From Escherichia coli (GTDB lineage: Bacteria > Pseudomonadota > Gammaproteobacteria > Enterobacterales > Enterobacteriaceae): a stretch of 64,000 bases of DNA. The DNA is taken from NCBI RefSeq assembly GCF_017348835.2, contig NZ_CP071375.1; one strand, written 5' to 3'. Made by a program: the position numbers. Shown piece after piece: positions 12,001 through 18,000 of the stretch; the stretch's first letter is position 1; every line of letters begins with the position of its first letter.

Positions 12001-15000
12001 TGGAGATAAATGCACCGGCAGCATAATAAAAAAAGAGCCAGCGACTGACCTGAAAGAAGACGCTGGCTAAAAGGCCTTATATGTTTGTAGAGACTTATTT
12101 TTCACAGACAGCAATGATGCCTGTCAATATATTATCAATATGCGGATTGTTTCAGTTACAGATGCTTTATTAAGGAAAAAAACAGCCAGCACTGACTTTC
12201 GGTGGAGAGGTGCTGGCTCAGAAGGATAGTTGGATTTCACATGATACTTATGTCTGGCGGTATATTTTCTGACAGACAGTGACGGATGTTGTCAAGATAT
12301 TGTGTCATTTATAACCTGAACCAGGGGGGCCGGAATGTTATCTGGCATTTTTAGCAGAGCCTGAATGCCATAATCACGGCTCCCGGAGTTGGCCGTCAGT
12401 GGGTGACACTGGCGGCTTTTTGTTTTCCTTTACTTTCATTTTCTGTCGGCGGTGACGGAGACATACATCAGATGGAAAAAATCACAACAGGTGTGTCATA
12501 CACCACGTCAGCGGTAGGGACGGGATACTGGTTACTGCAACTGCTGGACAAAGTCTCTCCGTCCCAGTGGGTGGCAATAGGTGTACTGGGGAGTCTGCTG
12601 TTTGGCCTGCTGACGTATCTGACTAACCTGTATTTCAAAATCAGAGAGGACCGGCGTAAGGCGGTGCGGGGAGAGTAAAGTGATGAAGAAAAAATACGAA
12701 CTGGTTGTTAAAGGGATAAATAATTACCCGGATAAGATTACTGTTACTGTGGCACTGGAAATTGGTGGGTATCCGTCACTGTTGTTGCCAGATGTGGCGA
12801 TTAGTCTTGACCGTACTGAAGGTGCCACGCTGGAGTTTTACGAAGCTGAGGCGAAAAAGCAGGCGAAGCAGTTTTTCATGGATGTTGCTGCCGGGTTATG
12901 TGAAGGGGATGGTCCGTTGCCGGAAAAGCGGCCCATCATTTTAGAGGCGCAGGATGTGTTGATAACCTACAGAGGAAAACTACCGGGAATAATTACTGGT
13001 TCTCTGAAGACTCCACCGCTGGCCTGAAGACTTAACATATCCAGGGATTTGAAATCGATAAATCCTGATAAATATCCATGAACGCAAAAATCAGATACGG
13101 CCTGTCGGCTGCCGTTCTGGCGCTGATTGGTGCAGGGGCGTCTGCGCCTGAAATCCTCGACCAGTTTCTGGATGAAAAGGATGGTAACCACACCACAGCA
13201 TACCGTGATGGTACGGGTATCTGGACCATCTGCCGCGGTGCCATCCTGGTGGATGGTAAACCTGTCGTCCCGGGCATGAAGTTGTCGAAGGAAAAATGCG
13301 ACCAGGTTAACGCCATTGAGCGTGATAAGGCGCTGGCATGGGTGGAGAAAAACATCAAAGTGCCGCTGACCGAACCCCAGAAAGCGGGGATCGCGTCATT
13401 CTGTCCGTACAACATTGGTCCCGGTAAGTGTTTCCCGTCGACGTTTTACAGACGAATTAATGCAGGTGATCGCAGGGGAGCATGTGAGGCGATTCGCTGG
13501 TGGATTAAGGACGGTGGCAGAGACTGCCGTATTCGCTCAAACAACTGCTACGGTCAGGTCTCACGGCGTGACCAGGAGAGCGCGCTGGCGTGCTGGGGAA
13601 TTGACAGATAAGAAGAATATTTTGCTGAAAAATGAGGTTTGCTTACATGGACGGATAACACGAAATCCTGCAAATTGGCAAAATGTAAGTGAATAAAGTT
13701 AAAACAGTTGTTTAACACTCAGGCACCGTAATGATGCCTTTGTCATTTCTGCGCATCTCACGCGCATCTCACAACACAGAACCTTTCAGGATGACCCTTG
13801 AGGATACCGGTTTGGCTGTGCCTTTCTGTGGGCTGGATTCCTGTGAGACAAGGTTCATCACTAAAAGGAAATAACCGATGAATATGATGGCCGTGCCGTT
13901 TTATGTAGTTAACCATAATGGCGAACCATACGTTCCCATGAAACCTGTCGTTGCGGGGATGGGGCTGGCCTGGCAATCACAGTTGGCTAAGTTAAGACAG
14001 CGTTTTGCGTCAACTATAACGGAAATCGTTATGGTTGCTGAGGATGGGAAACAACGCAATATGGTGTCCATGCCACTTCGAAAACTTGCCGGCTGGCTAC
14101 AAACCATTAATCCCAACAAAGTAAAACCCGAAATCCGCGATAAGGTCATCCGGTATCAGGAAGAGTGCGACGATGTTCTTTACGAGTACTGGACGAAGGG
14201 TTTTGTCGTTAATCCCCGTAAAATGAGCGTGATGGAAGAACTCAACCAGGCTTGTGCTGACATGAAACGGGATAAAAACATTGCCAGTGTGTTTGCTACC
14301 GGGCTGAATGAGTGGAAACAGGTTAAAGCCGCGCATGTATCAAAAATCCGTACGCTGGTAAATGAAGCGAATATGCTGATTGATTTTGTCCTGGCTGATA
14401 CAGGCAAAGGGAAAATAACAAAGGCGGATTGATGGGGTGGCTAATGATATCAGATAAACTCATAACGCTGGTGAAGAGCCTCTGTGTACTTGTCGGCATT
14501 TCATTTTTAGTCATGCTGGTTGCCATTTTCTTTTCCACCGCCTGGCGAGTCCTGACGTTATCGGGACTGGTGGGGTGAAAGAGAGATGAACCGTGTTCTG
14601 TGTGTGGTGATTATTGTCCTGGCGGTTGGCTGTGGTGCGCTGTGGCTGGCAACAAACCATTACCGTGACAACGCGCTCACCTACAAAGCGCAGCGCGATA
14701 AAAAAGCCAGAGAGCTGGAACAGGCGAATGCCACCATTACTGACATGCAGGTGCGCCAGCGTGATGTTGCTGCGCTCGATGCAAAATACTCGAGGGAGTT
14801 AGCCGATGCGAGAGCTGAAAATGAAACTCTGCGTGCTGATGTTGCCGCTGGTCGTAAGCGCCTGCGGATCAACGCCACCTGCTCCGGTACCGTGCGTGAA
14901 GCCACCGGCACCTCCGGCGTGGATAATGCAACCGGCCCCCGACTGGCAGACACCGCTGAACGGGATTATTTCATCCTCAGAGAACGGTTGATGACAATGC

Positions 15001-18000
15001 AGAAGCAGCTGGAAGGGGTACAGGACTATATCCGCACTCAGTGCCTGAACTAAGTTTTGCTGATGCGCCGTATCGTCGCCGTATTCCTGCATTAACAGAG
15101 ACCGCAGCCCGACAGGGAGACTCCTCTGCGAGAGTGTGCGGGGATAATCAAAAACGATACACACCGGGGTTTACCGCGTAAACGGAGCGCGGCGTTCTCC
15201 CCTCATGGTCGCCCGTCCGGTGCGATGGTGGAAGAAACTGGAATCTGTTCAATAAAAAAACTGCCGTGTTGGAGTCACAGCAGTAATGTACTGATTGGGT
15301 AGAAGATTATTATTGTTATGCTTTATTTTTATTCTATATGGCTGATTATTTCAATTCGGAATTAATACAGCTAATGTCTGTGATTTTTTATAAATTCAGC
15401 AATATAAAGAAATAGTTATATGAACAGCCATCGCAGAGCATACTGTGTATCATTCTTTTTTATAGTCAACTGACGGGCATATTTTATGTCTGCTGCCAGC
15501 TCCCGGCGGCAAGATTCAATGACCCACGCAGAAAAATTTTCTGAACCTTTCTGGTCAAGAGCGATGTTAATTTGTTCAATCATCTGGTTTGGAAATCGGA
15601 TGTTGCGGGTTGTTGTTCTGCGGGTCCGGTTTTTCGGTGACATTTTCTTTCCTCTGGTGACAAGCTATATGGCGAGGATTTTACATGGCCGTGCTTCGTA
15701 CGTTACCGGGCAGAATCAAAACTCTGAACACCCGGCGGGTGAATGTCCTGAAGGGTGAACAGCGTCGGGTCAGTGGTAGTGCCCGGGTTTCCCTCAAGCG
15801 TCGTATCTGGCTGAGGGATGCCGGACAGTGCTGTCTCTGTGGGCGTGTGGTTGACCTTTGTGACAGTGAACTTGAGCACCGCATTGCACTTCAGTTCGGT
15901 GGTGGTAATGAGGAGACGAATCTCTGGACGCTCTGTACCGAATGCCATCGACAAAAGTCTGCTCGTGAAGCGGCGAGTGGTATGCCAGACCCGACGCTGC
16001 CGGAGGTGTCCGGAGGTCATGGCAGGGCAGACGATATCATCGGACTGTGACCCGCCCCGGGGGGGGGATCATCCGGCGAAAAAAACGATCGCCCCGGACA
16101 CCGCCCCCCCTCTCACGCAGAGAAAAAATTCCCGTTTCAGGGCAGTTAACATGTTAACTGGCTGTCCGGGCATTTTTGCGGTTTTTATCTTTATTATTCA
16201 GTTTGTTGTGCGGAAAAAATGTTAACTGGCTTTTTCAGCAAATGTTAACCAGGCAGCAGTTAACATTTGCGGCATGAGACGCCGGGAAAAATGGGCTGAA
16301 CCATACCCGGCTGAGTGCGTTCTGGACCCGGGAGGAGGCTGTGCTGACAACGCAAAAACGAAAATTTGCGCTGGCGCTCATGTCCGGGAAAAACAAAACA
16401 GCGTCAGCCATTGCCGCTGGTTATTCGGCGAAGACCGCCTGGGTTAAAGGCTCGCAGCTGGCAAAAGATCCGGAGGTGCTTGCGTTTATAGCCCGTAAAC
16501 AATGCGAGACGGTGGAGGTGGATGAGGTTCCTGTTTACCGGCAGAAAAAATCAGAGCAGGAGGATAAACCCCGTCGCCGTGAGGCGGCTGCAATACCACA
16601 GCCGGATGAAAACAATCCGGAGATGCCACCGTCCGCGGTGATGTCTCCTGGTATTGAATATATGGAGGATGGTCTTCCCGATCCGGTGAAAGCGATGGGG
16701 CGTCTTCTGGTGGAGAACATTAATACCGACCCCAGGCTGGCGCTGGATGCGGCTTATAAGCTGGCGCAGTTCACGCACCATAAAAAAGGGGATGCCGGTA
16801 AAAAATCGGCAAAAGGTGACGCGGCGAAAAAAGCGGCTAACCGTTTTGCGGTGCCACCACCACCCCGCCTGGTGGTGAATAATGATAATGAGGGCAACGG
16901 ATGATACCTGTGTGGAGCACGGCCTGCCCGGACTGGGCAGAGCGCCTGAAAAAGGGGCTGTCGATTATTCCGGCTCCGATTTATCCGGACCAGGCTGCAC
17001 ATGCACTGGCGATTTTTAAACAACTGCGAATTGTGGATGCACCGGGTAGCCCGACATTCGGGGAGTCCTGTGCACCGTGGGTGTTTGACCTGGTGGCGGC
17101 CCTGTTTGGCTCCTACGATGCGCAGACCGGTGTTCGCCATATCAAGGAAGTGTTTATCCTTATCCCCAAGAAAAACAGTAAGTCCACGCTGGCTGCGGGG
17201 ATCATGATGACGGCGCTGTTACTGAACTGGCGGCAGGCGGCGGGCTACACCATTCTGGCCCCGACCGTGGAGGTGGCGGCTAACGCCTTCAACCCTGCCA
17301 GGGATATGGTACGACGGGACGATGATCTGGATGACCTCTGTCAGGTGCAGACACATATCCGGACCATCACCCATCGGGTGACGGACACCACCCTGAAGGT
17401 GGTGGCAGCCGATCCGAATACGGTGTCCGGTATCAAGTCCGTGGGGACACTGATTGATGAACTGTGGCTGTTTGGCAAGCAGTACAAGGCGGAAGACATG
17501 CTACGTGAAGCCATCGGCGGGCTTGCCTCCCGTCCGGAAGGGTTTGTGGTGTATACGACCACCCAGTCGAATGAACCGCCCGCCGGGGTGTTCAGACAGA
17601 AACTGCAGTATGCCCGGGATGTCCGTGACGGCAAAATTCATGATCCGCACTTTCTGCCGGTGATTTTTGAGCATCCTCCTGAAATGGTGGAAAGCGGGGC
17701 TCACCTGCTGATGGAAAACCTCGCCATGGTTAACCCGAATCTCGGTTATTCGGTGGATGAGGCCTTTCTGTACCGGGAGTACCGTAAAGCCCGGGAGGCT
17801 GGTGAGGAAGCATTTCGTGGCTTCATGTCAAAACACGCCAATGTGGAAATCGGTCTTGCCCTGCGTTCTGACCGCTGGGCGGGCGCGGATTTCTGGGAGC
17901 AGCAGGGCAGGCGCGTCAGCCTGGACGATATCCTGCAGCGCGCTGATGTGGTGACGGTGGGGATTGACGGCGGGGGCCTGGATGATCTGCTGGGAATGTA

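Follow-up and report, generated by a model that had tools for sequence, protein, structure and literature searches.

A Widespread Phage Leader RNA with Two Predicted Pseudoknots Is a Candidate Translational Gate for an Antirepressor-Like Gene and Other Accessory Genes

Introduction

What lies between the endolysin gene R and the spanin gene Rz of an Escherichia coli prophage, and what is the meaning of a direct repeat just upstream of the antirepressor-like (ant-like) gene that is found there? The locus is part of a stretch of 64,000 nucleotides of contig NZ_CP071375.1 (assembly GCF_017348835.2), to which we refer as the window. An earlier note on this DNA had drawn attention to a lysis cassette interrupted by two extra genes and had suggested that the repeat could be an operator. 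The repeat is indeed present upstream of the ant-like gene as two perfect tandem copies of the 11-nt sequence GCGCATCTCAC, at positions 13751 to 13772, one nucleotide to the left of where it had been placed (13752 to 13773). A chance origin of a perfect 11-nt repeat is unlikely, yet the repeat is lineage specific. Our results suggest that it is one corner of a larger conserved element, a leader RNA with two predicted pseudoknots and a long helix that would pair with the Shine-Dalgarno (SD) sequence of the ant-like gene. In enterobacterial phages, those of the Stx type among them, this widespread and strongly conserved RNA precedes accessory genes, some of which are antirepressor-like.

Results

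A megablast search with the whole region revealed that a sub-segment of about 130 bp, running from the repeat to the ant start codon, occurs also in Salmonella P22-like phages and in a Lambdavirus, where it precedes KilA, a 228-aa gene or a 251-aa gene and is situated after Rz/Rz1 or among tail genes. A sensitive search detected the segment in 305 phage records, including those of Klebsiella phages and of ECP1 (before an HNH endonuclease gene), and a pattern scan of IMG/VR found the leader in at least 120 viral contigs. Among 135 collected copies, the orientation is constant and the element ends 15 to 18 nt before the start codon. The genes downstream fall into 11 unrelated protein clusters, including KilA-N-, Bro-, P22_AR_N-, Rha-, HNH-, KilAC- and glycosyltransferase-like proteins as judged by their sequences and record annotations; TciA/TerB and a 50-aa Cys-rich open reading frame (ORF) are further cargos. 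An intrinsic terminator is present just before the first hairpin of the leader (P1) in 78 of 96 distinct upstream contexts, and the sequence upstream of P1 is variable across copies. The leader is portable: it recurs at a constant distance from the starts of many phage accessory genes that are unrelated to one another. It is also noncoding, because its core varies in length from 78 to 85 nt, with all three frames in use, and because in P13803 and L019 a stop follows the only conserved AUG after 5 to 7 codons.

Comparison with Rfam 15 gave no match at E values up to 1 in positions 11800 to 16500 and only noise at E values up to 10 in 13600 to 13950 and in 8500 to 9700. The covariance models (CMs) for sar (RF00262), C4 (RF01695) and isrK (RF01394) did not match the leader; for isrK there were only far-below-threshold matches, with E values above 1 and located elsewhere than the leader. 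Core strings of the leader and related terms from noncoding RNA discovery were not found in the searchable full-text literature, and a description in literature beyond it is possible; the papers examined on Pas small RNAs and on phage small RNAs do not describe the leader. It is this leader, without a match in Rfam 15, that is the new item here, as the cassette in which it is located is already known.

Two alignments were used to examine the structure. The first (A4) is a MAFFT alignment of 82 distinct copies and was not fitted to any structure, while the second (A6) comprises 25 diverse sequences, both canonical and divergent, and was fitted to the structure model. For the canonical type the helix arms were set by the search pattern; the covarying positions of the pseudoknots PK1 and PK2 lie outside the pattern-fixed bases. 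The leader is predicted to fold as a sense-strand RNA in which the loop of P1 pairs with a bulge in the 3' arm of a long interrupted helix, P2 (PK1), the linker after P1 pairs with the apical loop (PK2), and the base of P2 pairs with the SD sequence (Table 1). This basal helix consists of five pairs between CCUUU (13782 to 13786) and AAAGG, with the ATG at 13878 following 9 nt on, and it is 100% paired in all 25 of the diverse copies. The 5' strands of PK2 and of the SD helix form one uninterrupted segment (CACAGAA-CCUUU), and the two helices could be stacked on each other, an arrangement known from SD-occluding pseudoknot riboswitches. The fold also contains many invariant unpaired bases. An additional hairpin in the apical region, P4 (GCC/GGC), is weakly supported, being paired in 82 to 93% of cases with little covariation.

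The fold is supported by covariation. The P1 stem changes in a compensatory manner from CG to UA and to GCAC/GUGC, CGCUU/AAGCG, CACAUC/GAUGUG and CUGUC/GACAG. PK1 has the consensus UCNCAC with GUGNGA, and in A4 its variable position is GC in 36 copies, AU in 31, UA in 14 and GU in 1, with none of the 82 unpaired. For PK2 in the same alignment, columns 39/98 are AU in 59, UA in 20 and CG in 3 copies, columns 40/97 are CG in 76, AU in 5 and GC in 1, and 99.1% of the PK2 cells are paired. Further variants are CGCCC/GGGCG, CGCUC/GAGCG and UGACAC/GUGUCA for PK1 and CCACAGAG/CUCUGUGG, CCGUAGAG/CUCUACGG and CGAGAG/CUCUCG for PK2. The states of PK1 and PK2 occur in nine combinations and are complementary every time, which argues for selection on pairing and not for simple shared descent. 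Over the whole structure, 96.8% of the cells in A4 are paired versus 30 to 47% when the partners are slid, and this value was reached by none of 500 shuffles. In A6, 95.4% of the cells are paired versus 32 to 46% in slid controls, and 23 of 45 pairs exhibit a compensatory change; in the central part of P2 this is the case for 9 of 12 pairs between the canonical and the tciA type (see below). Once one dubious terminal P1 pair is dropped, before which the ratio is uninformative, G-U pairs outnumber A-C combinations by 50 to 13 and by 28 to 8, an excess that favors the sense strand.

The tandem repeat can be read within this fold. Its first copy corresponds to the 5' arm of P1 minus the first base followed by the P1 loop, and its second copy to the 3' arm of P1 followed by six bases of a variable linker. 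Other members of the family have a different sequence in the linker, whereas the bases of the hairpin covary with those of their long-range partners. We therefore read the repeat as the P1 hairpin together with a duplicate of its loop that is specific to one lineage.

A second, divergent copy of the leader is present in the window before tciA, a gene of the TerB family, and forms the same helices with different letters in P1, in both pseudoknots and in most of P2, while the basal CCUUU/AAAGG is unchanged (Table 1). This leader and tciA occupy the position that stx has in Stx phages. Relatives of the tciA-type leader occur in E. coli and Klebsiella phages and in Erwinia and Salmonella jumbo phages. 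In the jumbo phages the leaders are located between a tRNA-Cys gene and a TerB/tciA gene (L135 in Erwinia phage ChrisDB, at about 1155 to 1295, and L136 in Salmonella phage pSal-SNUABM-04). Their PK1 has the same letters as that of the tciA-type copy in the window (CGCCC/GGGCG); the P1 stem, which is CACAUC/GAUGUG or CUGUC/GACAG, and PK2, which is CCGUAGAG/CUCUACGG, differ. In L140, which precedes the 50-aa Cys-rich ORF and likewise retains P1 with other letters, PK1 is UGACAC/GUGUCA and PK2 is CGAGAG/CUCUCG.

Two side observations were made at the tciA-type leaders. Seven of these (L131 and L141 to L146) have a homopolymeric tract of 8 to 12 G residues within P2, at the place in its 5' arm that is taken by GGGGGUG in the window copy (9085 to 9091); such tracts could reflect slipped-strand phase variation or homopolymer sequencing error. 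Additionally, the STnc100 family of prophage small RNAs gave a weak, sub-threshold match (20.1 bits, E value of 0.07) at 8943 to 9047, over the tRNA-Arg gene and the terminator that follows it.

The leader in front of the ant-like gene is part of an inserted module. Homology with phage Stx1_1649, which lacks ant, ends at position 13704 of the window and restarts at 14583, 3 nt short of the start codon of Rz, so that the insert comprises the 878 bp in between. This module consists of a weak hairpin with a T-rich tract (13722 to 13749), the leader of about 128 nt, the ant-like gene and a 48-aa ORF. No sigma-70 promoter-like site was found on either strand in 13612 to 13877.

Protein families in the surrounding cassette were assigned by Pfam and PHROG scans of the window ORFs, and the ORF list and the raw sequence were checked. 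The genes named in the earlier note (holin, 114-aa ORF, lysozyme, ant-like gene, Rz and Rz1) were all borne out, as was the position of Rz1 inside Rz: the two starts are 220 nt apart, which leaves a remainder of 1 on division by three and places Rz1 in the +1 frame, and a lipobox (VVSAC) is present. The S-R-Rz/Rz1 order is interrupted as had been claimed, but by three genes and not two, the 48-aa ORF having been overlooked. These inserted ORFs are conserved genes and not annotation artifacts. The possibility that domain searches might identify them as routine lysis accessory proteins applies in part, since the 114-aa ORF, which had been thought to have no recognizable domain, is covered by matches to PF07041 and phrog_406 and belongs to the named family YdfR/DUF1327.

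The arrangement had seemed unusual, but it is standard in Stx-type lambdoid prophages and is annotated in them. In relatives, the annotations by RefSeq and by the original authors list a holin gene, then a gene for YdfR or a hypothetical protein, followed by those for lysozyme, Ant, a hypothetical protein, Rz and Rz1. Over at least 80% of its length, the 3-kb region has matches in 42 phage records, with identities of 96 to 98% for the nearest ones; among these are Stx1a- and Stx2a-converting phages, Stx1_EH1995, YYZ-2008, BP-4795 and WGPS2. At least 80% of window positions 8600 to 15300 is found in 522 of 5,426 complete E. coli genomes, and the chromosomes of strains 88_1577 and 2013C-4974 contain prophages that match the window with 99.9% identity and have the same PGAP annotation. 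The presence of ant downstream of R has been described for 933W, VT2-Sakai, Stx2 II and phi24B, the phi24B homologue being named d_ant and proposed as a target of the small RNA 24B_1 (PMC4426718), and Ant is reported for 126 of 279 Stx phages (PMC8136144). The locus is an ordinary lysis cassette of the phage 21/Stx-phage type in a non-Stx lambdoid E. coli prophage, and the gene arrangement by itself is routine and holds nothing new. There is no stx here; its position, after a Q-like antiterminator gene and two tRNA genes, is taken by tciA and a tciB-like gene, next to which follows a gene for a NanS-p-type esterase. A strong terminator-like hairpin (11 pairs and a T-run) was observed within the late operon at 12391 to 12417, roughly 55 nt before the holin gene starts.

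Table 1. Positions in the window of the leader RNA, its helices, the second leader copy and the genes of the lysis region
Feature	Position	Strand	Basis or remark
Leader RNA, about 128 nt, two pseudoknots	13750-13877	+	CM match, 147.6 bits
P1 hairpin, UGCGC-AUCUCAC-GCGCA	13750-13766	+	stem covariation
PK1 5' side, P1 loop, UCUCAC	13756-13761	+	pairs with 13843-13848
PK1 3' side, 6-nt bulge in P2 3' arm, GUGAGA	13843-13848	+	pairs with 13756-13761
PK2 5' side, linker, CACAGAA	13775-13781	+	pairs with 13824-13830
PK2 3' side, apical loop, UUCUGUG	13824-13830	+	pairs with 13775-13781
P2 5' arm, CCUUU C AGGAUGA C CCUUG AGGA	13782-13804	+	long interrupted helix
P2 3' arm, including SD AAAGG (13864-13868)	13839-13868	+	basal pairing
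Second, divergent leader copy	9047-9173	+	CM (built from A4) match 9041-9180, 43.5 bits, E 1e-9
Second copy, P1, UGCGCC/GGCGCA	9047-9064	+	
Second copy, PK1, ACGCCC/GGGCGU	9053-9058 with 9140-9145	+	
Second copy, PK2, CCACAGAG/CUCUGUGG	9071-9078 with 9119-9126	+	
Second copy, P2		+	GGG/CCC, GGUGAGC/GCUCACC, GGAG/CUCC; basal CCUUU/AAAGG
Second copy, SD	9160-9164	+	
Intrinsic terminator between tRNA-Arg and second leader	9018-9041		
tciA (TerB family)	9174-9605	+	downstream of second leader
tciB-like gene	9602-9769	+	after tciA
Accessory module, 878 bp	13705-14582	+	comparison with ant-less phage Stx1_1649
Class II (phage 21 S-type) holin, 68 aa	12472-12678	+	PF04971, E 1.4e-32; PHROG holin
YdfR/DUF1327 protein, 114 aa	12683-13027	+	PF07041, E 4.7e-46; phrog_406, E 1.8e-64
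SAR-type lysozyme (R), 177 aa	13078-13611	+	PF00959
ant-like gene, 184 aa	13878-14432	+	PF10547, E 5.8e-42; PF10549, E 5.1e-06; phrog_524
48-aa single-transmembrane ORF	14432-14578	+	phrog_4906, E 1.5e-30
Rz i-spanin	14586-15053	+	PF03245, E 3.2e-50; phrog_13
Rz1 o-spanin, +1 frame of Rz, lipobox VVSAC	14806-14991	+	PF06085, E 1.7e-21

Two proteins of the cassette have peculiarities in this copy. The holin belongs to the S21 family of class II holins, and it has a single Met at its start in place of the dual-start motif (antiholin plus holin) of Stx phages (MYQM); the upstream ATG reads ATA in the window (12463 to 12474), which would leave no start for the longer product, the antiholin. The lysozyme has a hydrophobic, Gly/Ala-rich N-terminal segment of the SAR type and aligns from residue 9 with the phage 21 lysozyme (3hde, E value of 3e-17), in agreement with R21 homology. 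Residue 35 (codon 13180 to 13182) is Asp. At this position the EG motif has its Glu in each of the five relatives compared, in the phage 21 lysozyme, whose structure is solved (3hde), and in the endolysin 7m5i. This Glu is probably the catalytic one of the T4-lysozyme family, and the D35 endolysin may for this reason be crippled. The lost upstream holin start, the D35 substitution and a 4-nt deletion in the leader (see below) together suggest a drifting prophage.

The YdfR/DUF1327 match covers positions 1 to 92 of the 93 in the PF07041 profile, and the gene is situated between holin and lysozyme, with the same synteny in WGPS2, BP-4795 and E. coli 2013C-4974 (PGAP name, YdfR family protein). 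This family is narrow: it has 282 clusters, and all clusters with a source name come from Escherichia or Shigella. An AlphaFold (AF2) model has a confident beta3-alpha N-terminal domain (residues 5 to 73), while the C-terminal 40 residues are conserved and unmodelled; there was no sequence match in the PDB, no significant fold match (best E value, 0.23) and no NCBIfam or PADLOC match. Some database entries (P0010, P0068, P0088 and P0094) join the holin (PF04971) to DUF1327 and many others are YdfR proteins of 176 to 183 aa; these may be gene-calling artifacts or real fusions across the 4-nt gap between S and ydfR.

The ant-like protein contains P22_AR_N at residues 9 to 108 (PF10547) and ORF11CD3 (PF10549) and matches phrog_524, "anti-repressor Ant," with an E value of 1.8e-104. 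The Pfam scan found no match to P22_AR_C, the C-terminal domain of P22 Ant, and the protein has 184 aa compared to about 300 aa for P22 Ant; "antirepressor" should therefore be read as a domain-level label only. For the d_ant protein of phi24B, an antirepressor function has likewise only been proposed (PMC4426718). The ATG of the 48-aa ORF overlaps the ant stop codon (TGATG), which suggests that this membrane-protein gene is translationally coupled to ant. The ORF is conserved in Stx phages, and the annotations of WGPS2, BP-4795 and E. coli 2013C-4974 list it as a hypothetical protein. A gene for a small transmembrane protein was likewise seen 3' of tciA.

Discussion

Our preferred interpretation, to which we assign a probability of roughly two in three, is that the leader is a cis-acting translational gate for accessory genes. 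As no promoter was found, the leader would be reached by read-through transcription, presumably the Q-antiterminated late transcription. On such late antiterminated transcripts the compact fold would hold the ribosome-binding site closed, and a closed site would mean that the accessory gene is translated at a low level or only once the fold has been opened or cut. As candidate triggers we consider temperature, a ligand or a protein, and also RNase III, for which the lambda N leader is a precedent. Two hallmarks of riboswitches were found, namely, a structured domain supported by covariation and a ribosome-binding site inside the expression platform (AAAGG with CCUUU in 25 of 25 copies). A more far-reaching proposal is that the leader constitutes a new class of ligand-sensing riboswitch, with putative ligand binding, or a new self-cleaving ribozyme that gates accessory genes of lambdoid, P22-like, Klebsiella and jumbo phages; we put this forward as tentative, the odds being clearly against it. 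Binding of CsrA was considered as well (sites AGGAUG and GAGGAU) and the idea was dropped because the first GGA motif is absent from the tciA-type copy.

The main rival to the translational gate is a role in RNA processing, in which the leader would be a self-cleaving ribozyme or a dedicated processing element for an RNase (III, E or P) that cuts the accessory mRNA from the late transcript. The compact double-pseudoknot fold with its many invariant unpaired bases is in keeping with such a role, as is the location of the element inside polycistronic late operons and, in several phages, adjoining tRNA genes. The interrupted helix of about 21 bp also resembles the substrates of RNase III, of which the lambda N leader is one. 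However, no ribozyme family of Rfam matched at E values up to 10, and the invariable inclusion of the SD sequence in the basal helix, together with the fixed spacing to the start codon, points to translation. We regard a processing element as unlikely.

The recurrence of the same approximately 130 bp before unrelated genes, at various genome positions, might alternatively indicate a DNA recombination linker that is kept by homologous exchange of the downstream genes. A linker would leave unexplained the compensatory changes in four helices, the retention of both pseudoknots with different letters in the jumbo phages and the bias of G-U over A-C, and hence we consider it very improbable.

We attach an equally small weight to the proposal that the minus strand yields an antisense small RNA as the functional product, or that this product is a short leader peptide initiated at the invariant AUG in CAGGAUGA. 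Antisense control has a precedent in P22, where the sar RNA, antisense to the ribosome-binding site of ant, represses that gene (PMC12197685), and the two strands of the leader fold about equally well. Against this stand the G-U pairs, which favor the sense strand by about 4 to 1, the lack of a minus-strand promoter-like site and the lack of a match to sar, C4 or IsrK. As for a peptide, an AUG-initiated ORF is open in many copies, but the frame after the AUG is not conserved, as the early stops in P13803 and L019 illustrate, and GUG or a G-run replaces the AUG in the tciA types; the leader peptide was rejected on these grounds.

Finally, least likely of all is that the tandem repeat is a DNA operator for a repressor of an ant promoter. 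P22 ant is controlled by operators, and the two copies of the repeat match perfectly at a site ahead of ant. However, the linker that contains the last six bases of the second copy differs in most copies of the leader, of the 82 distinct homologous elements only 5 have kept the perfect repeat, no promoter-like site was found nearby, and an operator would not explain why bases of the first copy covary with partners 87 nt downstream. This reading was therefore rejected.

Several points also weigh against the translational gate itself, or against the structure on which it is built. Single-sequence folding gave weak z-scores (-1.3), which are not informative. Part of the invariance of the helix arms in the canonical type is an ascertainment effect, because these arms were fixed by the search pattern; much of the covariation in P2 stems from one deep split between the canonical and the tciA type, and A6 was fitted to the model. 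The window copy differs from WGPS2 by a 4-nt indel (site 13812-13813; WGPS2 L001:4346-4349) and lacks GUCG, the 3' arm of an inner hairpin (P3), and for lack of this arm it may be impaired. The GUCG-less leader is identical in E. coli 2013C-4974 and was found in no phage-database record (best identity, 97.1%). Sequestration of the SD sequence is a structural prediction, and the triggers named above are candidates. Since the basal helix consists of five A/U-rich pairs plus stacked helices, it is conceivable that a ribosome might open it easily.

The leader accounts for the repeated appearance in phage genomes of the same 130 bp or so, at module junctions that have no other relation to each other. 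Should it act as a translational gate, it would provide a handle on the timing of accessory gene products, including the ant homologue, and would be a candidate for a new riboswitch or ribozyme class. If it were indeed a riboswitch or ribozyme of this kind, one host or phage signal would control together a set of "moron" genes, encoding antirepressor-like, KilA/Bro/Rha-like, HNH and TerB/TciA proteins, and this set would include the antirepressor homologue that has been proposed to influence induction of Stx prophages.

Comparison with known systems places the locus among familiar relatives. The cassette shares its genes and their order with the lysis region of Stx phages and phage 21, and the prophage differs from these in having tciA/tciB for stx, in the loss of the upstream holin start and in the E35D change of the lysozyme; its ant leader differs from that of the Stx phages by the 4-nt deletion. 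The inserted module resembles the morons described by Juhala and Hendrix, which likewise consist of a single accessory gene or small gene pair between conserved genes of lambdoid late operons. Classic morons have their own promoter and a terminator downstream, whereas here no promoter was found and a terminator is usually located directly upstream of the leader.

Among RNA elements, the RNase III site in the lambda N leader is likewise a long imperfect helix over a downstream SD sequence that could be opened by cleavage; the lambda N leader is not known to be pseudoknotted or portable between genes. The SAM-II, preQ1-II/III and fluoride riboswitches share with the leader a compact pseudoknotted fold with the SD sequence in a helix and tertiary pairings supported by covariation. 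Unlike these, the leader has no sequence or structure match in Rfam 15 and its ligand is only putative, and its cargo consists of unrelated accessory genes and not of one metabolic pathway. The isrK-orf45-anrP system of Gifsy-1 is a prophage antirepressor mRNA that is held translationally inactive by a 5' structure, as is predicted here; Gifsy-1 is activated by the short IsrK RNA in trans, for which no counterpart was identified at the window leader. In the immI regions of P22 (sar/ant) and P1 (c4/icd-ant), RNA pairing likewise occurs at the ribosome-binding site of an antirepressor gene. There the pairing partners are trans-acting or antisense RNAs with their own promoters, whereas in the leader described here the pairing would be intramolecular, and the same leader also serves many genes other than ant.

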